Shown: positions 5,493 to 60,712, counted from the stretch's first letter. The stretch is 60,712 nt of DNA from a virus (IMGVR_UViG_3300032456_000003:1-60712), one strand, 5' to 3'. Program-made: numbers and translations. Notes: generated by a model not told the origin, from the sequence alone.

Positions 5493-6108
5493 CCGATACC
5501 CTCCCACGGATCTCGGCGAGGTGCCCGCGCAACTCCATCGCCTCGCGATGCAGATGCAAGTCCGCTTGCAAGCGGTTGGCGAGTTCCTGCAAATCGGTAG
5601 CTTTTCGCTCGGCGACTTCTCGCAACCGCCTTGCCTCGGTCTCTGCTACTCTCGCCTCTACCTCTGCCACTCTCGCCTTGTGCGACTGCTCGCCGAATTC
5701 CTCCGTGGTCGGATGGGCCAGCAGCGCGCGAGTCACCGGGAACGCCGCCACGAACATCGCGGAACCAGCGACTGCTGTCAGCGCGTCCCAAACGACGATG
5801 ATCGTGGGCATGTCCCAGAGATCGTGCAGGTAGTATTCCGGGTGGCAAAAAACGAGGACGTTCCAGATTCGTCTGGTGCCAGAAAGAAGCATGAAAGCGA
5901 AGAATGCAATCATCATCCATTTGGCCGGCAAATGATGCCGGCTGCGGGAGTGTGCCCAGCCGTAGCAAAGAACGATTGGGAAAAGCAAGAATGCGATAGC
6001 CACAATCGAATTTGATACCTGGCTCATGACGACGAGCCACACTGGCCACTCCGCGCCGTTTCCCGATGCAAACCAACTCGCGTCGGCAAGAAATCTTAAC
6101 TGGGTCAT
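5485..6108 (-). CDS. multi-pass membrane protein with C-terminal coiled coil (207 aa)
   Basis: Trimmed to the ATG at 6108 (MTQLRFLADAS...), which has a GGGGGAAAAA SD. Several hydrophobic helices are followed by VAEVEARVAETEARRLREVAERK. Confidence 0.5.
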   Translation of the reverse strand: MTQLRFLADASWFASGNGAEWPVWLVVMSQVSNSIVAIAFLLFPIVLCYGWAHSRSRHHLPAKWMMIAFFAFMLLSGTRRIWNVLVFCHPEYYLHDLWDMPTIIVVWDALTAVAGSAMFVAAFPVTRALLAHPTTEEFGEQSHKARVAEVEARVAETEARRLREVAERKATDLQELANRLQADLHLHREAMELRGHLAEIRGRVSDG

Positions 6109-6170
6109 TTTTCCCCCTGCGCTGGCGTGTTGTGATGCGCCAGATCCTACCCGATCCGTTCTTCCGGCTC

Positions 6171-6929
6171 TCACGCGCGGAGCCTTTTAAGCCACCCGCT
6201 CATCCGTGGATGCCGCACCACATGCTCATCCAGGAACCGCACCACGCCCACGCCGGCGGCACCTTCGAGCCGCTCGACGAACCACGGCAGCCCGCCCTTG
6301 CCAGCGGGCAAATCCGATTGCTCTGGATCGCCCAGCACGATCAGTTTCGCCCCCTCGCCCACGCGAGACAGCACCAGGAGAAGCTCCGCCCGCGTGCAAT
6401 TTTGCGCCTCATCCAGCACCACGATCTCATGTCGGAACGTGCGGCCGCGCAGATACGCGAGAGCTTGCGGCTTCAGATTTTCAGCGGGGAATTTGCCCGG
6501 CCCCTTGAGCGGAACGACGCAACCCAGAGCCTCGAAAAACGCGGCGTAGTGCGGGCCGAGTTTGTCATCGACCTCGCCAGGCAGAAAGCCGAGCCGCTGA
6601 TTGCCAGCCTCGACGGCCGGACGAATCAGCGTGATGTGGTCGGCGTATCCATCGAGAACCTCGCGCGCTGCCAGGGCCATCGCGACGACGGTTTTGCCCG
6701 CGCCCGCTGGCCCCGGCATGATGAGGATATCCACGCCGGCGAACAATCCCCATGCTTGGCTCTGCGGCTCGTTGCGAGGCCGAAACCGAAAGGTGATCGG
6801 GATGGGTGCCACGGGTGCCGTGGCGATCTCCGCTGGCTGCGGTCGCCCCTTGCGTTCCTTTTGCTTTTGCCCCTCCTGTGGGCCTCGCTTCGAGCCGCGA
6901 CGTTTGAAATTCCAGGGACGTTTCGCCAT
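6171..6929 (-). CDS. phoH: PhoH-like ATPase
   Basis: It has Walker A GPAGAGKT, LGFLPGEVDDKLGPH, YLRGRTF, Walker B VVLDEAQN and GDPEQSDL. These are the characteristic PhoH family motifs in order. Confidence 0.85.
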   Translation of the reverse strand: MAKRPWNFKRRGSKRGPQEGQKQKERKGRPQPAEIATAPVAPIPITFRFRPRNEPQSQAWGLFAGVDILIMPGPAGAGKTVVAMALAAREVLDGYADHITLIRPAVEAGNQRLGFLPGEVDDKLGPHYAAFFEALGCVVPLKGPGKFPAENLKPQALAYLRGRTFRHEIVVLDEAQNCTRAELLLVLSRVGEGAKLIVLGDPEQSDLPAGKGGLPWFVERLEGAAGVGVVRFLDEHVVRHPRMSGWLKRLRA

Positions 6930-6961
6930 GAGCGCCTCGCCTCGGTTGTTTGAGATTGGGT

Positions 6962-9900
6962 TTACGCCTTCTTCTCGGCTCGCTTCTGGTCGGCGGCTGC
7001 GAGCCGACCGCGGAGCATCTTCGGCATCGGCTTCGCGACCATCTCCACCAGCAAGACCTCGTCGAAATCCTTCGGCCGATCCTTGCCTCGCCGCTCTTCA
7101 GCGGGCTTGCGGTCGTGCGCATCCTGCTCGGTCTCGCGGTCGCGGCGTCGCGCGCCCTGCTCCGCGACCTCGGTCTTGCGGCGGGCGACTTGCGCGGCCT
7201 GGTTGGCTTCCCACTTCTCGGTCGGCTCGTAGTATTCCTCGTGGACAAACGTCCGCTGACTCTGAGGCAGCAGTGCGATATTCTCGCCGGCGAATTGCCG
7301 TTCGAGCAGTCGCGCCTTGCGGCTCTCGTTCGTCCAGCGGCGGTATCCGATGTAGACGTTTTCCTCCTTGACGACGCGCGGCATCGGATCGTCGTCGTCG
7401 TAGAGCGAGGCCGGGGCGTCGGGCGCGTGCGGCGAGATCAGCGTGACGTTGCCCGCCTCATCCCAGGCATACAACTCGCACGTCCCAGCACTGTCCTTGG
7501 CAACCAGGCCCGCCGTGTTGCTGCCGATCCCGGTTGGGTTACCCGTCGCCTGGGAGAGTACCAGGCAGGGGGTTCCGCCGCCTGTGGGTGTCGCCCCTGT
7601 GCCTAGAACAGTATGGTTGCCGCTGACACGGAATTTTGCCGCGTTCTCCAGGGTGAGCGTAACGTCCACCGTGTCGAATCCGAAGTAGCCAAGCCTGGTT
7701 GGGCCGGTCGGGTGAAAAAACTGGATGGTGCCGGTTCGCGTTGCATCGCCAGGTAGCGCGTAAATGTACCCATTGCCCGACCCGATGTAAGCCGCGACAG
7801 ATCTCGCGTATACATCGCCACTCCAAGTTGTTTCGTTGTTATCGAGCAACGGAATCGTGTTGCCCGAGACGCCCGTGTCCTTGTATGCGGCCGTGCCCAG
7901 CCCTGAAAGTTTGGAAATACTTCCCGCTTCGTCGAAGCTATAAAGCTTTGCGGTTCCGCCATCGTCCTTGACGATCAGCCCAGCCGTGTTGCTACCGATT
8001 CCGGTTGGGTTACCCGTCGCCTGGGAGAGTACCAGGCAGGGGGTTCCGCCGCCCGTGGGGGCAGCACCTGCCCCCAGGACAGTGTGGTTGCCGCTGACAC
8101 GGAATTTTGCCCCGTTCTCCAGGGTGAGCGTAACGTCCACCGTGTCGAATCCGAAGTAGCCAAGCCTGGTTGGGCCGGTCGGGTGAAAAAACTGGATGGT
8201 GCCGGTTCGCGTTGCATCGCCGGGTAGCGCGTAAATGTACCCATTGCCCGGCCCGATGTAAGCCGCGACAGATCTCGCGTATACATCGCCACTCCAAGTG
8301 GTCTCGTTGTTATCGAGCAGCGGAATCGTGTTGCCGCTGGTGCCCGTGTTCTTGATTGCCGCCGTGCCCAGCCCCATCGTCGTCCGGGCCGCCGGTGCGT
8401 CGATGTCGTCGGCGAGCGACAGGCTAAAGTCGGTGATGGTTTTGGCGACGAGACTTCCGGTCGAAGACCTCGCCGGGAAGGTGTTGACCGCGAAGGAGGT
8501 CTGACTGAATGCGTCCGCCCCGGTCCCGATAGTGAGGGTGTTCGCTGCGATGGTCAGAGCAGCGAGCGCCGCGAGCGTTGCGTCGTACGCCTGGACGTTG
8601 GTCCCGATGACTAGACCGAGGTTGGTTCGGGCGGTGGGTACACTGGCGAGGTCGCTGAGGTTGTTTGCGACAGCGAGATAGTCTCCCGCTGCGGCGGTAG
8701 CGATAGTGCCTAGGGCTGCCGCCGTCCTCAGAGCCGCCGCGTTTGCCAGTTCGAGCAGCGAGCGCCCGTAGCTCGCCGTCGTCAGGGCTGCGATGGCGGC
8801 GAGGTCCGCGTCGTACGCCTGGACGTTGGTTCCGATGACCAGACCGAGGTTGGTTCGCGCCGTGGGTACACTGGCGAGGTCGGAGAGGTTGCTGGCTATG
8901 GCTAGGTATGTACTGGCCGCGCTGGAGACTGTCAGAAATCGCCCCTCGCTGCCGACAGTGACGTAGTCGTCGGCCGAAGCGGTCGCGATGGTGCCGAGGC
9001 CGAGGGCCGCGCGTGCGGCGGAGGCGCTGGTCTGGATGCCGACAATCAACCCGCCATGATAATCGTTCCCGATGACATCCAGCCCGTCCGCCCCGTCCAG
9101 CACCCCTGTTTGGCGATTGACCCGGTACCCAGTATTGCCTTTCCGGTTATCGCCGGCAGACGTGCTAGTCAGGGTGAACCACGTCCTGTAGAAAGTCTCG
9201 CCGGCAACTGGATCGAGAGATAAGTACCAACTGCCAGACTGTTGCCCCTCAAGTGGGTACGCAGTAGCCATCACGACCGGCCGACTTTGCGCTGCCAAAG
9301 TGTCATAGCCGCCGATGAAGCCCCCGTTGGGGAACATAACTTGAAGGCATCTCACTTCTCCCACCACGTCTACGCTCGCTCCCACCGTAAGATCAACACC
9401 GACATACATGTCGTAGATAGCCTCAGCACTTACGAAGGTCTTGTGTCCGCCAAAATTCTGTGCGGCCGTCGAGACGATGCCGGCCTGGCTCGCCGTCGCA
9501 GCACCGATGTCCACGCGGACCACGCCGGCTCCCGGCTGCGACACCACGAAGCCGTCCGCCTGGTCGAACTCAATCGTGGTCGTCGCAGCGTAGGACGGTG
9601 TCCCATCCACCTCGCGGACAGTGAGAGCGCCGGCGAAGTCGAGCCGGACCACGCCCGGCGATGGTTGCGACAGGGTAAGCCCGTCCGCCTGATCGACTTC
9701 GATTGTGGTAGTCGCGGCGTAGGACGGCGAGCCATCCACCTCGCGAATGGTGAGCGAGGGCAAGGTCGTCGCATCGTCCGGGGCCACCAGCAGCGTATCC
9801 TGCGTCGTCGTCGTTGCTTCCAGCGCGCGAAAGCCGAGCTTGTCTTTGGTGAGTTGGTACGATCCGCTGGCCGTGCCCAGCACGCCGTTGATCGCAAGAT

Positions 9901-14674: not shown

Positions 14675-14868
14675 TCGGTATTACCTTTTCAGAAACTCAG
14701 GGCGTTTTTGCTCTGGGATAAATTCCCGGCCCTCTAGGTGCCCGTGGAATTTATCCCAGACCAGTTTTTTCGTTTTTAGCCTACGTTTGTAGGTTTTTGC
14801 TTGGGATAAATTCGTTTGGAAAAAACGAGTTCTTCCCACGGGGCTTTTCGGTATTACCTTTTCAGAAA
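14675..14868. repeat. composite AT-rich repeat element, copy A (173-bp-spaced direct repeats, 3 GGGATAAATTC boxes)
   Basis: TCGGTATTACCTTTTCAGAAA occurs at 14675-14695 and 14848-14868. The inverted repeat CTGGGATAAATTCC/GGAATTTATCCCAG lies at 14713-14726 and 14746-14759, and a third box lies at 14803-14813. It is homologous to 47340-47528. Confidence 0.8.
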
Positions 14869-15080
14869 GGGGCCTCCTCGGGGTCGTCTTCCTGGCCAGC
14901 GCCGTCGATGGCCTCGTCGAACTCCATCATGGCCGCGTAGGCCTCACCGTATATCCGATCCAGGGCGCGGTAGGCGTCCTCGTCGTTCTCGGCCGCACAG
15001 TTGGCGGTCGCTGCCAGAACGAGGATTCTGGCGATGGTGGCCTTGAGGTAGGCGGCCGGGCCAGTGGTCGTGGTCAGCAT
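14862..15080 (-). CDS. small acidic protein (72 aa), second gene of operon P3
   Basis: Trimmed to the ATG at 15080 (MLTTTTGPAAYLK...), which has a GAAGGAG SD. Its stop codon lies inside the direct repeat of element A. Confidence 0.5.
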   Translation of the reverse strand: MLTTTTGPAAYLKATIARILVLAATANCAAENDEDAYRALDRIYGEAYAAMMEFDEAIDGAGQEDDPEEAPF

Positions 15081-15114: not shown

Positions 15115-15162
15115 GTCAAAATCCCCGCCCCGGAATCGAACCGGGGAAGCCAGTCGGGGTGG
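15115..15162 (-). promoter_or_regulatory. tRNA T-arm/acceptor-like minihelix, copy 2
   Basis: The minus strand reads CCCCG-ACUGGCUU-CCCCGG-UUCGAUU-CCGGGG-CGGGG-AUUUUGACCGAAC. It starts about 10 nt after the stop of 15173-15328. Confidence 0.6.
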
Positions 15163-15172
15163 TTGCGCCGGG

Positions 15173-15328: not shown

Positions 15329-15370
15329 GATCGTCTCCGGTTTGCGTGTGTCGTTCTTCCTTACACCACT

Positions 15371-15399
15371 ATAATAGTATCCATCGTCCATCAAGTCAA
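15371..15399 (-). promoter_or_regulatory. early promoter P3 (TTGACT-17-TATTAT)
   Basis: The -35 is at 15394-15399 and the -10 at 15371-15376 on the minus strand. The transcript starts with the conserved leader GTGTAAGGAAGAACGAC. Confidence 0.6.
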
Positions 15400-15403
15400 G
15401 CCT

Positions 15404-15426
15404 AATTCTGGACATTGTCCAGAATT
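15404..15426. promoter_or_regulatory. palindromic operator AATTCTGGAC-att-GTCCAGAATT upstream of P3
   Basis: Perfect 10-bp arms with a 3-nt spacer. The same palindrome occurs at 16193-16215 next to the RHH gene. Confidence 0.6.
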
Positions 15427-15436
15427 TTCTACCGGG

Positions 15437-15777: not shown

Positions 15778-15827
15778 GTCGAAAATCCCCGCCCCGGAAT
15801 CGAACCGGGGGAAGCCAGTCGGGGTGG
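15778..15827 (-). promoter_or_regulatory. tRNA T-arm/acceptor-like minihelix, copy 3
   Basis: Nearly identical to copy 2. It begins directly after the stop codon (15828-15830) of 15828-16109 and is followed by AUUUUCGAC and the next SD. Confidence 0.6.
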
Positions 15828-16109: not shown

Positions 16110-16159
16110 GGTCGTCTCTCCGGTTCGCGTTTCGTTTCGTCGTTCTTCCTTACACCGTT

Positions 16160-16188
16160 ATAATAGTATACGATGCCTATCAAGTCAA
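16160..16188 (-). promoter_or_regulatory. early promoter P4 (TTGACT-17-TATTAT)
   Basis: The -35 is at 16183-16188 and the -10 at 16160-16165 on the minus strand. It is followed by the leader GTGTAAGGAAGAACGACGAAACGAAACGCGAACCGGAG. Confidence 0.6.
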
Positions 16189-16192
16189 GCCG

Positions 16193-16215
16193 AATTCTGG
16201 ACGATGTCCAGAATT
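16193..16215. promoter_or_regulatory. palindromic operator AATTCTGGAC-gat-GTCCAGAATT between P4 and the divergent RHH gene
   Basis: Perfect 10-bp arms, identical to those at 15404-15426. Confidence 0.6.
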
Positions 16216-16238
16216 TTCTACCGGGCCGCATGGAAGTC

Positions 16239-24033: not shown

Positions 24034-24149
24034 GAGCGTTCGCGCCCCTGGCCTGCCCCTCGTAGGCTGAATCTCCCTCGGTTTTCATTCCCGCCAGGCG
24101 GTCGAGGGGACCGCTTTTCAGGCCGCGAACCCTAGGCGGGTTTGACTCG

Positions 24150-34337: not shown

Positions 34338-35018
34338 TCAGAGGTCGCGTTCCCAGATCGGTTTGCCCTCGTCTCCACTGCTCTGCCCCGGCCCGAAGTC
34401 GTCGAAGTCTGCCGTTAGCGACCGACTGCTCTCCGCCGACCCGCCCCCGCCCCACGCGCCGAGTGTGAACCGCTCGGCCAGCCAGCACGCCATTGCGGCC
34501 GCAAGGACAAGGTCATCGTGGTCACCACTGCGGTGCGCCTCGTAGGTGTCGTTGCCGGACAGGGAAATCTTTGCTTTGAAGTTTTGAAGTTCCTTCATGA
34601 GCATTTCGCCCTCGCGAAGTCCCTTCGCGACCTGGAACCGGCGACGGCGAAGCAGGATTTGCATGATGGAGCAGAGGTCTCGCTTGGGGACGTTCCAGCC
34701 GTGGGCGGTCTCGGTGGCCGCGCTGCCTGACGTGATGCAGATAGCGCGAATTGGGATCTCGGCCCGGTGGAGGAAGATATCCACGATGGGCCGACCTACC
34801 CCCGTGTAATCGACGCACAGAATCGAATCGCCGAGGTTGTGCTTGCGCCAGGTGTCGTGTACCATATCGACGATGTCGGGATAGGACGTGCCCAGCGGGT
34901 AGCGGATCAGTTCGCGAAGTTTGTGGATGGCCGGATCGCCTTCCACCTCGTTGATCGCGAGGGCAGAGGGGTCGCCCGCTTGCCCGAGGTCCAGCCCGCC
35001 GATGAACATGCTCACCAC
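34338..35018 (-). CDS. terL: terminase large subunit, nuclease domain only (separate ORF)
   Basis: GGLDLGQAGDPSAL (first catalytic Asp region) and SGDHDDLVLAAAMA fit the RNase H-like TerL nuclease. The likely start is the ATG at 35009, 3 nt after the upstream stop. Confidence 0.7.
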   Translation of the reverse strand: MVSMFIGGLDLGQAGDPSALAINEVEGDPAIHKLRELIRYPLGTSYPDIVDMVHDTWRKHNLGDSILCVDYTGVGRPIVDIFLHRAEIPIRAICITSGSAATETAHGWNVPKRDLCSIMQILLRRRRFQVAKGLREGEMLMKELQNFKAKISLSGNDTYEAHRSGDHDDLVLAAAMACWLAERFTLGAWGGGGSAESSRSLTADFDDFGPGQSSGDEGKPIWERDL

Positions 35019-35224
35019 CGATTCTCAACAAGATGCTGTAAGTAATTTGCGTCTCGAATGATGTTCATCTGGCCCTGAACGATGCCAATTTGAGACCAAA
35101 CGGCATTCCGGTCCTCGGCCCACTTTACGCGCTGTGGGCTTCCAGGTGGTCCGCCGTCTACACGCATCAGCATATTGGATCGGTTCATCAGCCGATCCAT
35201 TCTGTTGTTAAGTTCGTCCATCAC
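35012..35224 (-). CDS. small protein (70 aa) inserted within the split terminase locus
   Basis: ATGA overlap with the upstream gene. Its GC content is noticeably lower than that of its neighbours. No motifs. Confidence 0.4.
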   Translation of the reverse strand: MMDELNNRMDRLMNRSNMLMRVDGGPPGSPQRVKWAEDRNAVWSQIGIVQGQMNIIRDANYLQHLVENRW

Positions 35225-35718
35225 TTCCCCATGCCCAACGAGACCGTCGAGAAAAACGTGTAGGTGCCGCTGGCCTCAATCATCGCATCGAAAGGCGTGT
35301 TTGTTGCCGTGGCAAAAATCGCCACGCGATTTCCCATCATGGGACGAATTGCTAGAGCCATATCGTACCTGACGAGGTCGGCGTCGTCGATTACCAGGAG
35401 GTCCGGGACGTATCCCCGGCCCTGGGAAGAGATCACCTGAATCACTGACGAGCCGCCCATGCTGACGGTCAATCCCCGGATCAGGGCCAGGGGGTTGAAT
35501 CGGCGGATGCACTCGACTTGCATCATCTCGTGGCTCGGCGTCACCATAACCACCTTCGCGCCAGGATTGCCCATTGCGAAACTGACCGCGAGAGCCGCCG
35601 CCGTGGTCGATTTTCCGCACCTCCGGTCGGCTCGAACAAGAATCCTCTTTGCGTCGCACCGCAGCACGGATAGCTGCCACGCCTCCGGTGTCAGCCCGAT
35701 TTTCTCGAACATGATCAT
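35221..35718 (-). CDS. second, shorter TerL-ATPase-like paralogue (165 aa)
   Basis: It has Walker A RRCGKST and Walker B DLLVIDDA. GLTPEAWQLSVL parallels PPDPWQDQVL of the upstream gene. It ends SLGMGK, like the upstream PLGMGK. Confidence 0.6.
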   Translation of the reverse strand: MIMFEKIGLTPEAWQLSVLRCDAKRILVRADRRCGKSTTAAALAVSFAMGNPGAKVVMVTPSHEMMQVECIRRFNPLALIRGLTVSMGGSSVIQVISSQGRGYVPDLLVIDDADLVRYDMALAIRPMMGNRVAIFATATNTPFDAMIEASGTYTFFSTVSLGMGK

Positions 35719-36419
35719 TTCCCCATGCCCAACGGCATCACGTCCGCGCGGAACGCTGCCCGGATGTCCTCATCGGCGAACGCCGCGCCGATCGAATCGA
35801 CGAATTCCGTCATGTACTCCTGATTGAACCACCGATCGCCCATCGACAGCAGTTCGTCCGCGAGGAACTCCTTGCTGTACCGCGGGCACATATGAGCCGT
35901 GATCCGCTCCCGGTGCCACTTCATGCCGCTGCCCCGCTCGGCCCCGCGTTCCCACTCCTCAAAAAACCAGCCCCTCTTGCCGAACGGCGTCGAGCATGCC
36001 ACCAGCCTCCCTTGCGAGATGCCCAGCATCGGGCGACACGCAAAGTACAGATCGTCCGGGATGCGGCTCGCCTCATCGATCATCAGCAGGTTGACCCCCG
36101 AGTAGCCCCGCACGCCCTTCTCGCTGCCAGGAATGCCGATGACACGCGAGCCATTGGCCAGCACCAGGCTCTGCTTCAAGTCCTCGGCGATCTTCGCCCC
36201 ACTGGCCACCAGCAGCGGCCTCACCTTCGTCTGAAGAAACTCGATGCTCTTTTCCATGTTCTGGGCGAGCACCAGGGCGAAGCACGGGGATTCGACGATC
36301 ATGGCCTTCGCCACCATCGCGCCGGCCACCGTGCTTTTGCCAACCTGTCGCGAACAGAGCATCATCAGGCGGGAGTGCGAGGACTTGAGGACTTGATCCT
36401 GCCACGGGTCAGGTGGCAT
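35715..36419 (-). CDS. terL: terminase large subunit, ATPase domain only
   Basis: It has Walker A SRQVGKST, Walker B LLMIDEA, the coupling motif ACSTP and FNQEYMTEF. The start was chosen at ATG 36419, which overlaps the TerS stop (ATGCCACCTGA). The track ORF extends to 36581. Confidence 0.75.
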   Translation of the reverse strand: MPPDPWQDQVLKSSHSRLMMLCSRQVGKSTVAGAMVAKAMIVESPCFALVLAQNMEKSIEFLQTKVRPLLVASGAKIAEDLKQSLVLANGSRVIGIPGSEKGVRGYSGVNLLMIDEASRIPDDLYFACRPMLGISQGRLVACSTPFGKRGWFFEEWERGAERGSGMKWHRERITAHMCPRYSKEFLADELLSMGDRWFNQEYMTEFVDSIGAAFADEDIRAAFRADVMPLGMGK

Positions 36420-36942
36420 GCCCGCCTGGGAGAGAATCGCCCCCGGCTCCATCCAAAAGCGATCCGTCGGTAGGAGCTTGCCCGTCAACAACCGACACTC
36501 CAGCCGCTGCATCCACGCGGGCATGGAGGCGAGCGACGGCGGTGAGGCGTTCTTGCTCGGTCCAGGTCGCGATGGGTCCACCTTCCGCCCCCGTGTGTTC
36601 CAGCCGCGTCACATCACCGTAGACAGGACGCCGGCGAGTTTTGAGGAAAAACATGAGAAGCGAGTCATTCGAGCCGTCCAGCGCCCGCTGGTAGCCAGCC
36701 AGTTCCAGCGAATCGATGGCGTCCTCTACCGCGTCCTCCCACGCCCTGGCGAAGTCCGGGTCTTCCTTCCTGCGGAGGTAGACCGCTGTCCTCCCGATCT
36801 GGGCCGCATCGCAAGAAGCCCGCACATTCGCCGTCAGACTCAGCACCTTGATGAACTGAATCGACCAGTCCGGAGGCGGGTTCGGCTTGCGGTATTTCTT
36901 GGCCGTAGTCCGTTTCGTTCTCTTTGCAGCCACGTCAACCAC
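36409..36942 (-). CDS. terS: terminase small subunit
   Basis: It has a basic N-terminus. ANVRASCDAAQIGRTAVYLRRKEDPDFARAWEDA is HTH-like, and SLLMFFLKTRRRPVY is a typical TerS block. It lies directly upstream of TerL. Confidence 0.65.
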   Translation of the reverse strand: MVDVAAKRTKRTTAKKYRKPNPPPDWSIQFIKVLSLTANVRASCDAAQIGRTAVYLRRKEDPDFARAWEDAVEDAIDSLELAGYQRALDGSNDSLLMFFLKTRRRPVYGDVTRLEHTGAEGGPIATWTEQERLTAVARLHARVDAAAGVSVVDGQAPTDGSLLDGAGGDSLPGGHAT

Positions 36943-37615
36943 CCTGCGCTAGAACGCGCTCGAGAGCCGAGCCGAAGCAGATCAGGAACTGCTCGTCGGT
37001 CAGGTCGAGGTACTGGTCAGCCTGCTCCAGTGTGGCACGAGCCTTCCACGGATCGCTCAGGCGTCCTTTTATTCGTTTCAACAATTGCCTTACTGCGTCG
37101 ATGTCTTCGGCGGGTCCGTAGAGGGTCATGGAGCCATGCACGTCCGGCTTGCCCTGCTGGGCCTGTTTGACGCCGGCGCGAGTGCGTTGCTGTGTGGCCT
37201 CGACGATTTGGCGGATGTTGTCGGTGGCGGTCAGTGCCCCCAGGGCGGCGAGGTCTGCGGTCCTGCGGGCGAGTTCGGTGAGTTGTGCGACGACGGCATC
37301 TTCGTCGAAGACTTTCCGATTGCGGTCGTGTGCGAGGACGAACGTCCTCCGCTCGTCGGGTTCCATGCCTGCCATGATAATGCAGGGGATGTCGGCCACG
37401 CCGGACGCTTCGAGTTCATCGAGTCGCGTGTTGCCGTCCAGGACTTCGTAGGTGCCGTCGTCGTTGGATGCGACGACAAGGACGCCAGCGAATCCGAATT
37501 TCTTCAGGCTCGCCTTCAGCCCCTTGGAGAATCTGGCTCCAAGGGGCTTCTTCGGATTATCGGAATTGTGGTGCAACTTGCCGATCGGCAAGAGTTGCAC
37601 CGGGTTGACCTTCAT
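36935..37615 (-). CDS. ParB-like nuclease domain protein
   Basis: LLPIGKLHHNSDNPKKP and YEVLDGNTRLDE resemble the ParB N-terminal/sulfiredoxin-like motifs. No ParA partner is present. Confidence 0.7.
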   Translation of the reverse strand: MKVNPVQLLPIGKLHHNSDNPKKPLGARFSKGLKASLKKFGFAGVLVVASNDDGTYEVLDGNTRLDELEASGVADIPCIIMAGMEPDERRTFVLAHDRNRKVFDEDAVVAQLTELARRTADLAALGALTATDNIRQIVEATQQRTRAGVKQAQQGKPDVHGSMTLYGPAEDIDAVRQLLKRIKGRLSDPWKARATLEQADQYLDLTDEQFLICFGSALERVLAQGG

Positions 37616-45822: not shown

Positions 45823-45928
45823 AGTTGCCCCTCGCGAAAAATAATGCCCCCACCGAGGCCCAACCGTTGGCCATTTGAGGGGAGGCGTAACCCCTCTGCC
45901 TCCGTCCCCTCGGCGGGGGCAAGCCGCA

Positions 45929-46270
45929 TCAAGTCCCGAACGCCGCTGCCGCCCGCACCAGCAGATGGATCAATTCCCCCGAGCCGAGTTGCTGGGGGGT
46001 CAGCCGCAGCAAGTGCCAGCCCCGCAGGGCCAGCTCGTTGTACTTTTCCATGTCCCGCATGAACCCGCTGCCGCGAGTGTGCCGCCCGCCCGTCCAGACG
46101 CCGCCCTCGCACTCCACCGCGATCAGCTGCGCTGGCCAGGCGAAGTCAACCCGCCACAGGCGAGGACGGGCAAAGACGTACTCAGGCTCCGGAGCGGGCA
46201 GCCCGGCCTCGCATGCCGCTATCATGACCGCGACCGGGATAGCTTTTGCAGCCTTCCGTTTCGCCATCAC
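45929..46270 (-). CDS. Vsr/DUF559-like PD-(D/E)xK endonuclease
   Basis: WRVDFAWPAQLIAVECEGGVWTGGRHTRG...DMEKYNELALRGWHLLRLT matches the D...E.(D/E)G...K.N...GW.V.R pattern. Confidence 0.6.
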   Translation of the reverse strand: MMAKRKAAKAIPVAVMIAACEAGLPAPEPEYVFARPRLWRVDFAWPAQLIAVECEGGVWTGGRHTRGSGFMRDMEKYNELALRGWHLLRLTPQQLGSGELIHLLVRAAAAFGT

Positions 46271-46698: not shown

Positions 46699-47168
46699 TT
46701 CTCTTCCCCCTTGATGTCCAGCAACACCTTGAGCCGTTTGAGGAACCCCTTAACTTCGCTCTTCATACCCCCGCCCTGGGCGATCCTGGCGAGGTAATAG
46801 GCCCAACACTTCGGCGGCTCGACGATCTCGACGCATGGCTTGCCAAGTGGTGTCCGTTGCAGCACCAGCGGACCTTGCGTCGGCAGTCTCCCGGCCCCGG
46901 CTTCGCCGACGAACCATGCTCCCAGTGCGTCGTATTCCTCGTCGTCGAATAACTCGCACGCGGGCGTCCGGCCCGCGAACAGTCGGGCACACGCACTTGC
47001 TCCCGGCTGGTCCCGGATCATCTCAGCTATCTCCGCGTGCCAGCAACCCACCGCGAACCGCAGATCATCCGTCAAGCCGGCCGACTTCCTCACTATCAGA
47101 CATCCGCCGTCGACGGACACCTCGCATCCGGCCAGAAGCAACTCGCCGTAGGTCGTCGCCGCGCTCAC
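46695..47168 (-). CDS. hypothetical protein (157 aa)
   Basis: Track ORF 46695-47240 trimmed to the GTG at 47168, which overlaps the stop of the 50-codon ORF 47165-47317 (GTGA). Confidence 0.45.
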   Translation of the reverse strand: MSAATTYGELLLAGCEVSVDGGCLIVRKSAGLTDDLRFAVGCWHAEIAEMIRDQPGASACARLFAGRTPACELFDDEEYDALGAWFVGEAGAGRLPTQGPLVLQRTPLGKPCVEIVEPPKCWAYYLARIAQGGGMKSEVKGFLKRLKVLLDIKGEEK

Positions 47169-47317
47169 GGTGCCCCCTCTTCCGCCAGACGCACCATGCT
47201 GTCGCCCCCCGAGATCATCCCGAGTAGCAGTTGCCAGCATTCACTCCGGGTCGATGCTCCGCACACGGCTTTCCAGGTTCTGCTGCCCCTGGACTTGTAC
47301 CATCCGACGAAAGGCAT
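47165..47317 (-). CDS. small protein (50 aa, below track cutoff)
   Basis: MPFVGWYKSRGSRTWKAVCGASTRSECWQLLLG... has a strong AAGGAG SD 7 nt upstream. It is the first ORF after repeat element B. Confidence 0.4.
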   Translation of the reverse strand: MPFVGWYKSRGSRTWKAVCGASTRSECWQLLLGMISGGDSMVRLAEEGAP

Positions 47318-47339: not shown

Positions 47340-47528
47340 TTCGGTATTACCTTTTCTCGGAAGGCGTCTTTTTTTGCTCTGGGATAAATTCCCGGGCACC
47401 TAGGAGGGCGAGCATTTTATCCCAGAGCAGTTTTTACGTTTCTAGCCTACGTTTCTAGGTTTTTGCTTGGGATAAATTCGTTTGAAAAAAACGAGTTCTT
47501 CCCACGGGGCGTTTCGGTATTACCTTTT
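47340..47528. repeat. composite AT-rich repeat element, copy B
   Basis: TTCGGTATTACCTTTT occurs at 47340-47355 and 47513-47528, 173 bp apart. GGGATAAATTC boxes lie at 47381-47391 and 47469-47479, with an inverted box at 47416-47425. It starts 5 nt after the primase-helicase stop. Confidence 0.8.
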
Positions 47529-47532
47529 TTGT

Positions 47533-49623
47533 TCACTCCTCGAAAAGCACCGCTTTTGCCGGCTTCGTTTCGCCCGGAGTAAGGAGCCACTTCTGGCCGT
47601 TTCTGCTCTCGTCCTCGATCCCCATTTCGGCCCTGGCGTTGGTGAGAGTCCGCCTGTCGATCCCGATTTTCTCCGCCGCTGCCGTTGTTTCCGCAAGAGA
47701 CTTGTCGCCACCGGAAAGCCAGCCGGTCAGCCAGGCAGTCGCGACGTTGATCGCCGTGGCTGGCCGGCCACGGGACCGCCCTGCGGTGCCCGGCTCCGCG
47801 TCCGGTGACACGGGAGGGGCATCGTCGTAGTCGCACCCATCGCTGTGCATCGTGACGCCCAGGGCCGGCGGTTTGATCGCGTTGGACTTCGATACCCAGA
47901 TCCTGCGGCGGTTCGGCTGCCCCTCCGGGTCCGGCTCCGTCATGGTGATGACCTGACGTGCCTTCTCCACGATCCGCCGGCCCAGCACACCACCGTTTGC
48001 GTTCAGGTGCGTCAGGCAGATGATCGCGCAATCGAATTCGATTGCCAGCTTGCGGAGAGGCCGCGTCAGCGCCTCGGCCTCCTCCTGCGAGTGCATCTTC
48101 AGGCTGGTGGCCGAGCCGAGCGTGTCCACCACAAAAAACGTCGGCTTGACAATCTGCATGTAGTGACTCAGGCGTCCCAGTTGGCCATCGAGTTGCGTCC
48201 CCGCGAACGGGTCCGCTTTGAGGGCCGGCAGGTAAAACGCGGAGTCGAGTCCCCACGCCTCGACCATCGTGGCGGCCTCGGCGTGGTTGTCGTCGGCGAG
48301 CATCCAGAGCCATCGGCTGTCGCGGCCGATGGTGGCCGGGTGGAAGTCTGGCCAGTCCAGCCCCAGGCACACCCGGCGCATCAGGTCCATCGCGAACCGG
48401 GTCTTGCCGACGCCTCCGTTGGCTGCGACGATGGTGAGGACGCCTCGGGCGATCCAGTTGGGCCAGATCCATTTGACCGACGCTCCTGCCGCCTTCAAGT
48501 CGGCCAGGCGGGCAACCCCGTGGATGTCGTCGGGTAGCAGTTCTTCGTCGTCGTCCTCTTCCTCCGTGCGTGCGGCGACCGGCAGCGTCTTCTCTGGGAT
48601 CGGCTCGTTCAGCAGGTAGCCGCGCGACTTGTCGGATGGCGCTTTGCCAGCCTGTTCGATCTTGCGGCGCAAGTCCTTCTCGCTCCAGGGCGGGACGCAC
48701 GTCGCGTTCCACCCCTGGATTGCTTCCAGTGCCTGCCCGTCGTCAAGGGCGAATCCTTGCACCAGCACGCAGGCCACGCGGAAAGTGGTGTCGTGCCCGC
48801 GCTGGCCGGCGACGGCCGGCTCTGCTTTCCCGAGGTACAATTTTGCCCGCTCCAGGGCCGACTGGACGGCCGGGCGATCCGGTGTCCGTTCCTGCGCGTC
48901 GCGCAAGGCGAACCGTTCGATGGCGATTGCCAGGGCGGCAGTGTTCGCCGCCGCATCGGCTCGCGGGTCTTCGGGCATCTCCAGAACGCCGCCGATGCGA
49001 TGCGGTCGCTCGGGCGTGTCCTTGCCCTTGCGGGCTTTCGTGCCCCAGACCCGGCAGATCCTGGAGGCGTTGAAGCAGGGCGTGTCGATCTTCACGTCGG
49101 CATTGCCGACGTACTTGTTCAGGGCGATTAACAGCGAACGTACCGCCTCGCGAGAGGCTTCGTCGTTGGGCATCGTGACCGGGTAGAGCAGGTGGTAGCC
49201 GTTGCCGCTGTCGGCAATGACCGGCCGGCCGAACCCTAGAGCCGACAGTCCATTGACTACGTCGATGGCGATCTCATACGATAACGCCTTCTCTTCGTCG
49301 TCCGAACTGATTTCGGCCTGACGTAGCGGGTCGATGTCGAGCAGCACCCAATCGCGTTGGGAGATGTGCGCGTCACTGGCCGCACGTCCCTGGTCGTGGT
49401 CCTCGGTCACTGGGTTGATCGTCCAGTAGACACCCTTGAATCCTTTGCCTTCCATCTTGATCGCTTCGCGGGCCATCGCTTCCGCGTCTTCCGGCAACCG
49501 GAAGAATGCGGAACGCGCGGACCCATGAGCCGAGAGACTGCGCAGTTCGGTGAGACGCGGCCCGTCCGCGGACAGGGCCGTCAGCCATGCGACTATAGAC
49601 GTAACACGATCATCTGCCCGCAT
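47533..49623 (-). CDS. primase-polymerase (AEP) fused to a RepA/AAA_25-like helicase ATPase
   Basis: WVLLDIDP (DxD) and ADSGNGYHLLY are AEP motifs. ANGGVGKTRF is a Walker A in the C-terminal half. The ATG at 49623 has an AAAGGAG SD 8 nt upstream. Confidence 0.8.
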   Translation of the reverse strand: MRADDRVTSIVAWLTALSADGPRLTELRSLSAHGSARSAFFRLPEDAEAMAREAIKMEGKGFKGVYWTINPVTEDHDQGRAASDAHISQRDWVLLDIDPLRQAEISSDDEEKALSYEIAIDVVNGLSALGFGRPVIADSGNGYHLLYPVTMPNDEASREAVRSLLIALNKYVGNADVKIDTPCFNASRICRVWGTKARKGKDTPERPHRIGGVLEMPEDPRADAAANTAALAIAIERFALRDAQERTPDRPAVQSALERAKLYLGKAEPAVAGQRGHDTTFRVACVLVQGFALDDGQALEAIQGWNATCVPPWSEKDLRRKIEQAGKAPSDKSRGYLLNEPIPEKTLPVAARTEEEDDDEELLPDDIHGVARLADLKAAGASVKWIWPNWIARGVLTIVAANGGVGKTRFAMDLMRRVCLGLDWPDFHPATIGRDSRWLWMLADDNHAEAATMVEAWGLDSAFYLPALKADPFAGTQLDGQLGRLSHYMQIVKPTFFVVDTLGSATSLKMHSQEEAEALTRPLRKLAIEFDCAIICLTHLNANGGVLGRRIVEKARQVITMTEPDPEGQPNRRRIWVSKSNAIKPPALGVTMHSDGCDYDDAPPVSPDAEPGTAGRSRGRPATAINVATAWLTGWLSGGDKSLAETTAAAEKIGIDRRTLTNARAEMGIEDESRNGQKWLLTPGETKPAKAVLFEE

Positions 49624-51605: not shown

Positions 51606-51971
51606 TTACCCTCCAGCGACGCCCCAATCCAGGACGTTTGCCAGCGCGAACGTCATCCGCAAGGCGCTGTTCAAGTCGATTACATCCATCATCCACTGCG
51701 GCGATGGATGCCACTCGGTCGCGCCGAACCAGATTTTCAGCGGCATGATTCGCCGCATCGCGATCTCGCCGCGATGGTTGAGGTACTGGACATGCACATC
51801 AGCGTCTGGCTTCGCCCCTGGATTTCTTTCGGGCTGCCCCCTGTGAATCTCCAGGTCTTGCGGCGCTTCGACCCCGATCCGAATCTGCCCCCGTTCGATG
51901 TCAACGACGGTGATGACGATGTCCTTGCCGATGTAGATTTTCTCGGTCACCTTGCGAGTCAGTACCAGCAT
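51606..51971 (-). CDS. csrA: CsrA-family RNA-binding regulator fused to a ~70-aa C-terminal domain
   Basis: MLVLTRKVTEKIYIGKDIVITVVDIERGQIRIGVEAPQDLEIHRG matches the CsrA consensus nearly position by position. The extra domain is HRGEIAMRRIMPLKIWFGATEWHPSPQW... Confidence 0.75.
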   Translation of the reverse strand: MLVLTRKVTEKIYIGKDIVITVVDIERGQIRIGVEAPQDLEIHRGQPERNPGAKPDADVHVQYLNHRGEIAMRRIMPLKIWFGATEWHPSPQWMMDVIDLNSALRMTFALANVLDWGVAGG

Positions 51972-51972
51972 G

Positions 51973-52518
51973 TCATACCTCCTGATTGCTATTAACCGCC
52001 GCCACCAACCGCTCAATGTCATACGGACGTTGCAGGACCAGCCCGAACCATTCCGCCAGCCCCTCGGGCGGCTCCATCCCATCCGGCACGATCCCCACTC
52101 GCAGAGGCGTCTCCTTGCACCTGCTCGCGATCAGCGTGCCGGATGGGATGCCGATGCACAGATCGACGATCAGAACGTCCGGGGCAATCTGGCATAAAAT
52201 TCCGGCCTCGAACTCGTTATCGGCGTGCCCGAATTCGTGGCTCGCCGACCGCACAACCCGCTGGCGCTCGTTCGGCGGAAGGCAGACCGTGACGACGTAT
52301 GGGACTGCTGCAAGCGGCATCATGTCCAGTGGAAAGTTGTTCTCCTTCAGGAACCTGACGAATTGCTCCGTCGGAATGCGGCGGTCGTTTCCTCCGGGGA
52401 TGCGGTAGCCCTTCAGCCGTCCATCGTCCACCCACTTGCACACCGTCCTGGGCGTCACCATGCAAATTTTCGCAACCTGCCCGGTGGTGTAGACTCGCTT
52501 TCTGGCCATCGTTGTCAC
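51973..52518 (-). CDS. excisionase/MerR-type HTH fused to a pseudo-receiver domain
   Basis: YTTGQVAKICMVTPRTVCKWVDDGRLKGYRIPG is the HTH. The C-terminal PDVLIVDL...LQRPYDIERL resembles a CheY-like receiver that lacks the N-terminal acidic pair. Confidence 0.55.
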   Translation of the reverse strand: MTTMARKRVYTTGQVAKICMVTPRTVCKWVDDGRLKGYRIPGGNDRRIPTEQFVRFLKENNFPLDMMPLAAVPYVVTVCLPPNERQRVVRSASHEFGHADNEFEAGILCQIAPDVLIVDLCIGIPSGTLIASRCKETPLRVGIVPDGMEPPEGLAEWFGLVLQRPYDIERLVAAVNSNQEV

Positions 52519-59851: not shown

Positions 59852-59906
59852 GTCACAATCCCGCCCCCGGAGTCGAACCGGGGAAGCCGCCTATCGGCCG
59901 GGGTGG
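59852..59906 (-). promoter_or_regulatory. tRNA T-arm/acceptor-like minihelix, copy 5 (with extra 4-bp arm)
   Basis: The minus strand reads ACCCCG-GCCG-AUAGG-CGGC-UU-CCCCGG-UUCGACU-CCGGGG-GCGGG-AUUGUGAC. It begins about 4 nt after the stop of 59910-60194. Confidence 0.55.
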
Positions 59907-60194: not shown

Positions 60195-60238
60195 GGTCGT
60201 CTCTCCGGTTTGCGTGTGTCGTTCTTCCTTACACCTTT

Positions 60239-60291
60239 AATATACGTCGCATGACATTGGATGTCAATGTCATTCGACGGATTATTTAGGA
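60239..60291 (-). promoter_or_regulatory. early promoter P1 (TTGACA-17-TATATT) with palindrome and 28-nt block shared with P2
   Basis: The -35 is at 60262-60267 and the -10 at 60239-60244 on the minus strand. ATGACATTG-gatgt-CAATGTCAT (60251-60273) overlaps the -35. The block 60264-60291 equals 901-928. Confidence 0.6.
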
Positions 60292-60546
60292 AAGCTTTCT
60301 TCGGCGGATTTCCTGGTCCACGGCGAGCATCGCATCGGTCGGAACCCCCCGACGGTCGGCGAGCCACTGATCCACAGTCGTCTTGCGCACGCCGCAAATT
60401 GCGGCGAGGGTAGCTCGGTCGTACTCGAGTAGGGCCATCGCGGCCCGAAGCCCTGCGATGTCCTCGGTTGGTTCTCCATCGACGATAAAGACCGGCCGGC
60501 CAGCAATGCTGGCCGGGTGGTCTACGGTTGCTTCGATCTTCGGCAT
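60286..60546 (-). CDS. XRE/Cro-like HTH DNA-binding protein (86 aa), last gene of operon P2
   Basis: Trimmed to the ATG at 60546 (MPKIEATVD...), which has a GGAGAAAG SD. ATLAAICGVRKTTVDQWLADRRGVP is a helix-turn-helix. Confidence 0.6.
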   Translation of the reverse strand: MPKIEATVDHPASIAGRPVFIVDGEPTEDIAGLRAAMALLEYDRATLAAICGVRKTTVDQWLADRRGVPTDAMLAVDQEIRRRKLS

Positions 60547-60563: not shown

Positions 60564-60596
60564 GTCGGGCGACGACTAGATTGTACGTCGCCCGAC
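60564..60596 (-). promoter_or_regulatory. 11-bp perfect hairpin immediately 5' of the SD of the HTH gene
   Basis: GTCGGGCGACG, an 11-nt loop, then CGTCGCCCGAC. The 3' arm coincides with position 1 of the contig. Confidence 0.45.
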
Positions 60597-60712
60597 GAAC
60601 GCTGGCAAGGTAGATCACCGACCGCCCTTCTCATCCTCCGAGTTGCGGGTGGACTCGATCCGCCCGTCCATCATGGCGTCCCACGCACCCCTTGCGCGGG
60701 TCACCACGGCAT
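60586..60712. repeat. terminal overlap identical to 1-127
   Basis: Verbatim repeat of the first 127 nt. Confidence 0.9.

Follow-up and report, generated by a model that had tools for sequence, protein, structure and literature searches.

Two AT-rich repeat cassettes in the genome of an uncultured phage, one of them directly after a putative primase-helicase gene, as candidate origin or priming sites

The window, that is, the whole stretch of 60,712 nucleotides analysed here, is identical at its ends over the first and last 127 bases (1-127 = 60586-60712), which indicates a circular assembly with k=127 and a true length of 60,585 bp. The contig, phage-like and either circular or circularly permuted, comes from an uncultured phage and has about 62% GC, with nearly all genes on the minus strand. 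A scan of the window's ORFs revealed Mu-like head genes, and neither a DNA polymerase nor an RNA polymerase was found among them. Two AT-rich cassettes of about 190 bp, copy A at 14675-14868 and copy B at 47341-47528, occupy gaps of 45% and 48% GC, near the genome minimum; these two gaps, like the promoter gaps, are among the AT-richest non-coding stretches of the window, in line with the initial annotation, which had described copy A as an AT-rich element in a GC-rich genome. The features of the two cassettes and of the neighbouring gene are as follows.

14675..14695, plus strand: copy A left flanking direct repeat TCGGTATTACCTTTTCAGAAA, with the shared 15-nt core at 14675-14689, which includes the palindrome GGTATTACC
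14705..14725, plus strand: copy A T-run and box 1, GTTTTTGCTCTGGGATAAATTC, the box itself at 14715-14725
14713..14759, unstranded: copy A long inverted repeat or hairpin, arms 14713-14726 and 14746-14759
14727-14745, unstranded: copy A hairpin spacer, 19 nt, GC-rich, CTAG centre at 14734
14747-14757, minus strand: copy A box 2, in the long inverted repeat
14760..14802, unstranded: copy A AT-rich centre, 35% GC, with T/A tracts, a small hairpin at 14778-14795 and CTAnAAACG repeats
14803..14837, unstranded: copy A second inverted pair, imperfect, box 3 at 14803-14813 (plus strand)
about 14826-14838, minus strand: copy A box 4, degenerate, GGGAAGAACTCG, pairs with box 3
14848..14868, plus strand: copy A right flanking direct repeat, covering the TGA stop at 14862-14864 (minus strand) of ORF 14862-15080
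47341..47355, plus strand: copy B left flanking direct repeat, followed after 27 nt, in the direction of transcription, by the start codon (ATG) of a small ORF, 47165-47317
47379..47425, unstranded: copy B long inverted repeat, box 1 at 47381-47391 (plus strand), spacer inverted relative to copy A
47413-47424, minus strand: copy B box 2, two mismatches, in the long inverted repeat
47426..47468, unstranded: copy B AT-rich centre, 37% GC, with CTAGAAACGTA twice on the minus strand
47469..47504, unstranded: copy B box 3 at 47469-47479 (plus strand) and degenerate box 4 at 47493-47504 (minus strand)
47514..47528, plus strand: copy B right flanking direct repeat, a few nt past the stop of the primase-helicase gene
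47533..49623, minus strand: putative replication initiator, 696 aa; the longest ORF extends to 49671

The flanking repeat TCGGTATTACCTTTTCAGAAA was found at 14675-14695 and again at 14848-14868, 173 bp apart, just as the initial annotation had placed it. Its 15-nt core TCGGTATTACCTTTT occurs at exactly four sites in the window (14675, 14848, 47341 and 47514, with up to 2 mismatches allowed and none expected), and the flanking-repeat pairs of copies A and B are thus both spaced by 173 bp. The centre of this repeat, GGTATTACC, is a 9-bp palindrome, so that the "direct" flanking repeats would also be able to pair with each other. The flanking repeat of copy A reaches 6 nt further, into the end of the gene beside it, and, as had been noted, covers the stop codon of this gene, a TGA on the minus strand.

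Between the flanking repeats, the sequence GGGATAAATTC has five exact occurrences in the window against 0.4 expected, all of them within the two cassettes. Three boxes had originally been recognized in copy A; the third, at 14803-14813, is indeed present, but each copy holds four GGGATAAATTC-type boxes, the fourth being a degenerate inverted box, TGGGAAGAACTC, on the minus strand, which follows box 3 in both copies. The four boxes form two inverted pairs that flank an AT-rich centre (-> <- AT -> <-). Read along the minus strand, in the direction of transcription, each cassette consists of a flanking repeat, the imperfect pair of boxes 4 and 3, the 43-bp centre, the long pair of boxes 2 and 1, a variable 15 nt, and the second flanking repeat. 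The centre, with 35-37% GC, contains A-tracts, a hairpin of 4-5 bp and CTAnAAACG repeats, and the repeats and T/A tracts of copy A correspond to those reported earlier. The long pair encloses a GC-rich, CTAG-centred spacer, and the perfect 14-bp inverted repeat claimed for copy A (14713-14726/14746-14759) was confirmed. Inverted box pairs with inner hairpins are present on both strands of the cassette. In addition, GTTTTTGCTyTGGGATAAATTC forms a direct repeat with a spacing of 88 nt; tandem iterons of about 20 bp are absent from the cassettes, where the only direct repeats lie 88 and 173 nt apart.

Both copies fold far better than shuffled sequence, with z values of -4.1 to -5.7 over the two strands. 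The minus (sense) strand of either copy lacks the hairpin followed by a U-run of an intrinsic terminator, and the terminator scan returned a single weak candidate, on the plus strand of copy A only. Neither copy matched sigma-70 -35/-10 hexamers with a spacing of 16-18 nt. None of the Rfam 15 covariance models reached its gathering score on the cassettes, and at E<=10 only chance matches to miRNA and snoRNA hairpin models were obtained. Copy A is spanned by a single ORF, of 52 aa on the minus strand, which is not intact in copy B, in agreement with the earlier view that no credible ORF explains the element. The cassette is a real, non-random cis element and is probably functional.

Comparison of the two copies revealed 91% identity over 158 nt, with the differences distributed unevenly: about 150 nt are about 96% identical, while the spacer of the long hairpin differs strongly and 15 nt beside one flanking repeat cannot be aligned. 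That unconstrained parts have diverged beyond alignment, whereas about 150 nt have remained at about 96%, points to selection or gene conversion. The initial annotation had recorded a second copy with the same spacing, which was correct as to the 173 bp, but the flanking repeat of copy B measures only 15-16 nt, against 21 nt in copy A, and its long inverted repeat is imperfect, with 10 bp plus a partial extension. The copy A spacer GCCCTCTAGGTGCCCG matches the reverse complement of the copy B spacer GCCCTCCTAGGTGCCCG, whereas on the same strand only 12 of the 19 positions match; the hairpin loop is thus flipped between the copies. Compensatory changes between A and B were not found, and one difference breaks a pair of the small hairpin. 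On the circle, the copies are separated by 32.7 and 27.9 kb, and are thus nearly antipodal.

Copy B begins a few nucleotides beyond the stop codon of the gene for the 696-aa protein, which is the only replication-initiator-like gene of the window. Upstream of it are encoded a conserved protein of 188 aa and a Sak4-like AAA_24 ATPase. Copy B is followed by genes of early or middle type (methyltransferases, a tRNA), with no structural genes among them in the ORF scan. Copy A lies between the tail genes and a short unit with two early-type promoters (16188 and 15399), and no replication gene adjoins it. The early promoter cassettes of the phage, all on the minus strand (15350-15436, 16139-16225, 856-930 and 60218-60292), carry TTGACT-17-TATTAT or similar; a palindrome, TTCTGGACAnnGTCCAGAA, which is likely an operator, precedes the cassettes at 15350-15436 and 16139-16225, and a conserved leader, GTGTAAGGAAGAACGAC, follows all four. 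The early units also contain three occurrences (15118-15163, 15782-15827 and 59855-59900) of the motif CCCCGGTTCGATTCCGGGGCGGGGATTTT, which on the minus strand has the look of a tRNA T-arm and acceptor end and may be a terminator, or a tRNA-like or att-like element.

A gene for a ParB_N protein (36935-37615) adjoins the terminase and is thus some 10 and 22 kb away from the cassettes. The terminase large subunit seems to be split over 34338-36581 (minus strand), with Terminase_6N in a 288-aa ORF (35715-36581) followed by separate ORFs of 165 and 226 aa and then, ahead of the portal gene, a gap of 495 nt; this may reflect an intervening element or a frameshift. The phage also encodes a CsrA homologue (51606-52082, minus strand), with a Pfam E value of 1e-19, a score below the NCBIfam cutoff and an N-terminal extension of about 37 aa.

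We then considered the domains of the 696-aa protein. Pfam and PHROGs identified only an AAA_25/DnaB-like ATPase, a sequence search of the PDB returned RecA/RadA-like ATPase matches only, and an NCBIfam search yielded nothing useful. The N-terminal third, however, contains D..D and SGNG.H motifs that are invariant in an alignment of 13 homologues. Its AlphaFold model (pLDDT 93) gave as the best structure match the primase RepB' of RSF1010 (3h20, E 4e-10), with 3h25, also RepB', at E 2e-6, followed by other archaeo-eukaryotic (AEP) Prim-Pols; the match to RepB', at 14-16% identity, is one of fold only. The C-terminal residues, about 70 in number, were modelled by AF2 as helix-helix-helix-beta-hairpin with pLDDT >90. 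The top Foldseek matches of this domain were nearly all winged-helix DNA binders or regulators, with E values of at least 0.1 and none significant by itself, and Pfam gave only a weak hint of HTH_8. These models suggest that the protein is a putative initiator, composed of a RepB'-like AEP primase, a DnaB/RecA-like helicase and a C-terminal winged helix.

Full-length relatives of this protein number only about 15 among 5.8 billion proteins, none of them from a cultured phage or plasmid, and matches in cultured phages and plasmids were partial (24-47% identity over 11-44% of the query). Two of the relatives, encoded on contigs L059 (51% identical) and L061 (37% identical), are followed at the same post-helicase position by a non-coding gap of 215-277 nt, in which two long inverted repeats lie on either side of an AT-rich stretch, with folding z values of -4 to -10. 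The gap of L059 contains a perfect 38-bp palindrome of TGTACA boxes, and six of the seven TGTACA sites in 22 kb of L059 fall inside this gap; then follow an AT-rich stretch with CCTAGAAAAC and a second inverted repeat, TGTACATAATTC...GAATTATGTACA, whose spacer CCACGGCCCTAGGGGGCCGGGG resembles that of the window. The hairpin centre (..CCTAG..GGCCGGGGAATT) and the motif CCTAGAAA(A)C are common to the window and L059. In L061, two inverted repeats with arms TGTACACTTGTACGGTTTA surround the AT-rich stretch, and CCTAG lies in the first spacer. CTAG is about 7-fold depleted across the window (29 sites, against 207 expected from base composition), and nonetheless it is retained at the centre of the long hairpin in copies A and B, as well as in L059 and L061.

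In these three phages, the post-helicase layout and its position are conserved, while the boxes are lineage-specific. Within the C-terminal half of the protein, conservation is lowest in the winged-helix tail, with 35% identity between the window and L059, against 60-80% in the helicase core; the co-variation of box and winged helix concerns three genomes only. The homology of the cassette core to the syntenic region of L059 indicates vertical descent. The 19-mer of the L061 arm occurs at one locus only on its 51.9-kb contig, so that this phage seems to have only one such site, and the second copy of the window is probably a lineage-specific duplication. The relatives lack the motif of the flanking repeat, and the contigs that encode homologues of the 238-aa and 214-aa proteins next to copy A stop short of the site. 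The distant relatives L063, L064 and L171-L174 have no gap after the helicase gene. A structured non-coding gap is found instead upstream of the primase-helicase gene in two of them (L064:5795-6000 and L173:2743-3000), containing an inverted repeat, GCTATAGG..CCTATAGC, a T-arm-like hairpin and TGCTAGC..GCTAGCA; a tRNA was rejected as the cause of this structure, since ARAGORN finds none.

Further copies were sought in phage, viral, metagenome and genome collections, as the initial annotation had proposed as a check for mobility, and none beyond the two of the window were found. The cultured phages of INPHARED hold no DNA similar to the cassettes, and in IMG/VR neither the 16-nt flanking repeat nor the pattern of inverted boxes brought up anything but chance matches in AT-rich phages; the L059 pattern was likewise not found in IMG/VR, and a match in L177 was dismissed as chance. 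A two-box scan of the JGI metagenomes and 185,579 species genomes returned 104 loci, none related to the phage, and blastn of the cassette against them gave nothing past the imposed 11-mer. The window itself contains neither solo flanking repeats nor empty sites. The loci from the two-box scan (L065-L168) mostly represent an unrelated, widespread family of hairpin repeats that recur in tandem every 80-105 nt, in which the unit is 'GATCCCnnn-loop-nnnGGGATAAATTCG' plus a second hairpin and the arrays comprise 2-5 units (for example, L125:130-450, L149:2550-2700 and L168:780-900). Multiple sites per genome carry this family in MAGs of Smithella/Syntrophaceae, Omnitrophota, Planctomycetia and Bacteroidota; Rfam has no match to it, and its motif was not found in the literature.

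The likeness to origins that lie just past an initiator gene, as in the SaPI ori and pRN1, together with the hairpins used by RepB', leads us to a tentative reading, held at somewhat less than even confidence, of the cassettes as cis-acting replication origin and/or priming sites for the phage's own primase-helicase-winged-helix protein. The ori of the Staphylococcus aureus pathogenicity islands (SaPIs; Pri/Rep system), located directly downstream of rep, has 6-12 short repeats that are divided equally between the two sides of an AT-rich region and oppositely oriented; the repeats are bound by the winged helix of Rep and vary between lineages (PMC9371898). The position of copy B, the layout of inverted pairs, the predicted C-terminal winged helix and the lineage-specific boxes all correspond to this arrangement, whereas copy A does not share the position. 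The window further differs from the SaPIs in having four boxes of 11-12 nt per cassette rather than 6-12 repeats of 5-6 nt, in that its boxes build long inverted repeats, capable of forming hairpins, around a GC-rich spacer that is conserved, and in its second copy 33 kb away and the flanking direct repeats of 15-21 nt. The helicase is RecA/DnaB-like (AAA_25), unlike the SF3/AAA+ helicases of SaPI Rep and pRN1 ORF904. In pRN1, the replication protein combines an AEP primase, a helicase and a winged helix, and a stem-loop origin of about 100 nt lies within 166 bp downstream of its gene; a similar stem-loop is found 3' of the replication protein gene of the Bordetella phage BIP-1 (PMC4234260). 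The pRN1 origin, which goes with an SF3 helicase, is a single stem-loop without repeated boxes, whereas the present cassette has two inverted pairs and an AT-rich centre, and exists in two copies.

The oriV of IncQ plasmids such as RSF1010 offers a further comparison, because RepB' primes only at ssiA and ssiB, two hairpin-forming inverted repeats of 40 nt on complementary strands (PMC8567376). RepB' is the best structural match of the modelled primase domain, and the cassettes likewise have hairpins on both strands. In contrast to IncQ, the three functions of RepB', RepA and RepC seem to be fused into one protein, and 20-bp tandem iterons are lacking; any priming at the cassette hairpins is hypothetical. 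Phage P4 needs a second, distant site, crr, which carries the same repeats as ori. Its alpha protein is a primase-helicase whose winged helix binds the ori repeats (PMC4234260). P4, however, has a TOPRIM-type primase and 8-bp direct iterons, and its ori and crr, 4.5 kb apart, are not near-identical cassettes. Taken with these precedents, the cassette is most likely a variant of the known kind of origin that lies next to its initiator gene. Unusual here are the near-antipodal duplication, the flanking direct repeats, the flipped loop and the fusion of RepB'-like primase, helicase and winged helix in the putative initiator.

As an origin or priming site, the cassette would work in the following manner. 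The C-terminal winged helix would recognize the GGGATAAATTC-type boxes, arranged as two inverted pairs beside the 43-bp centre; the helicase would assemble there and open the AT-rich centre; the long inverted repeats would be extruded as hairpins on both strands; the RepB'-like primase domain would begin synthesis at or beside these hairpins; and host polymerases would then take over. Copy B, beside the initiator gene, would be the ancestral site and copy A a lineage-specific duplicate, which may serve, almost opposite on the circle, as a second origin or priming site or as a partner site for initiator binding. In a more specific and rather unlikely form, replication would be IncQ-like: a single fused protein would open the cassettes and prime only at their hairpins, which is why a 60-kb circle would need, and would have acquired, two near-antipodal cassettes, and the flipped loop would be a footprint of extrusion in vivo. 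The initial annotation had listed a replication origin among its candidates. The location of copy B directly after an initiator-like gene and the layout kept in two relatives argue for it, but the expected skew signal is missing: neither GC nor AT skew has a turning point at copy A or copy B, a test that is uninformative here because the genome is transcribed almost entirely from one strand. Against an origin also stand copy A, which has no neighbouring replication gene and is not required by the model, and the flanking direct repeats, which have no role in it, as well as the apparently single site of L061, the missing gap in the distant relatives and the helicase type, which is not that of SaPI Rep or pRN1 ORF904.

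A protein-binding site, an RNA hairpin or a DNA hairpin would each account just as well for the symmetric changes in the arms. Several other explanations were weighed. One is an activator-dependent middle or late promoter or operator, whose boxes would be bound by a DNA-binding protein of the phage, such as the HTH_17 protein at 51973-52518, which would thereby activate the two gene blocks right after the cassettes. A start codon lies 27-52 nt downstream of the end of each copy, both copies close units with early-type promoters, and the blocks 47317->16539 and 14625->1073 are devoid of strong sigma-70 promoters, which were found only at 60608, 60267, 56011, 16188 and 15399; lineage-specific symmetric boxes are typical of activator or repressor sites, and the A/T tracts could be UP-like or bending elements. 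We nevertheless consider such a promoter improbable, though an alternative of some weight, since neither copy has a -35/-10 pair, whereas the early promoters of the phage score 10-11/12, and since copy B is followed by methyltransferase and tRNA genes rather than structural genes. The same 16-nt repeat, moreover, recurs at the cassette's upstream end, where it lies on the stop codon of the gene before it, and the long arms, the self-complementary spacers and the perfect 38-bp palindrome of L059 resemble hairpin-forming DNA more than ordinary operators. A role in the sense (minus-strand) polycistronic RNA, as a processing or stabilizing element like the RNase III sites of T7, an antitermination signal like HK022 put or lambda nut, or a platform for CsrA, is doubtful. 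Both copies are intergenic and oriented as the genes are, the put and nut signals likewise come in two copies, the sense strand folds with z of -4.1 to -4.7, far under shuffled sequence, and the palindromic flanking repeats can pair to close a three-hairpin structure. However, the antisense strand folds better (z -4.8 to -5.7), the sense-strand hairpins have no following U-run, no Rfam family matches in earnest even at E<=10, the A/B differences are never compensatory and in one case disrupt the small hairpin, and the inverted loop would alter the RNA loop sequence. The reading of the GGGAU boxes as CsrA sites is of low probability: the phage encodes its own CsrA, L061 apparently does too, and all three phages have GG(G)AU at the long hairpin's 5' base, but these GGA motifs lie in stems, whereas typical CsrA sites have GGA in loops.

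The remaining two explanations had both been raised in the initial annotation. A short selfish or mobile repeat, whether MITE-, REP- or PATE-like or a module inserted site-specifically, perhaps akin to host hairpin repeats, would account for 91%-identical copies at two unrelated sites, for the apparently lineage-specific copy A, whose flanking repeat runs into the neighbouring gene end in the manner of a duplication junction, and for the same 11-12-mer in a hairpin arm of the widespread bacterial repeat family. Mobility is quite improbable, though, as the ends of the cassette are direct rather than inverted repeats and the flanking repeat is identical at both sites, hence no target-site duplication; the lack of solo repeats or empty sites, the searches for further copies, which ended at the imposed 11-mer, and the core shared with the syntenic region of L059 all oppose it, and the proposed MITE was accordingly set aside. 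The repeated boxes in two copies, as in parS clusters, and the presence of a ParB_N gene recall a centromere-like site (parS) of the ParB-like protein or a packaging site (pac) of the terminase. The ParB_N gene, however, sits beside the terminase at 35.7-37.6 kb, distant from both copies and with no boxes near it, and the relatives keep the element at the helicase gene and not at packaging genes, so that a partition or packaging site seems very improbable.

Should the origin or priming reading hold, both the origin and the initiator would be identified for a phage lineage that has hardly been sampled, and three naturally occurring initiator/box pairs of differing specificity would be at hand, in which the retargeting of a winged helix can be studied. 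The phage would also be a system in which one can test the use of two equivalent origin cassettes together with a helicase fused to a primase that is of RepB' type and may be site-specific. The gain would be only moderate, because origins beside initiator genes are well known; the IncQ-like form, if true, would amount to a site-specific-priming, multi-origin strategy not described for tailed phages.

Several minor observations were made elsewhere in the window and in its relatives. An Rfam int-alpA RNA motif (24075-24142, minus strand; 43 bits, above the gathering score) lies immediately upstream of the Mu-like major head gene, with no integrase nearby. ARAGORN called a tRNA-Ile(GAT) at 45869-45968 (minus strand), which at 100 nt is unusually long and may contain an insertion or be a mis-call. 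L061, like the window, has a CsrA match, although a weak one. Finally, L059 carries at 5572-8061 a 600-aa Cas12f1/TnpB-like gene followed by seven direct repeats of about 37-49 nt, spaced by 73-77 nt, which together look like a phage-borne mini CRISPR-type array.
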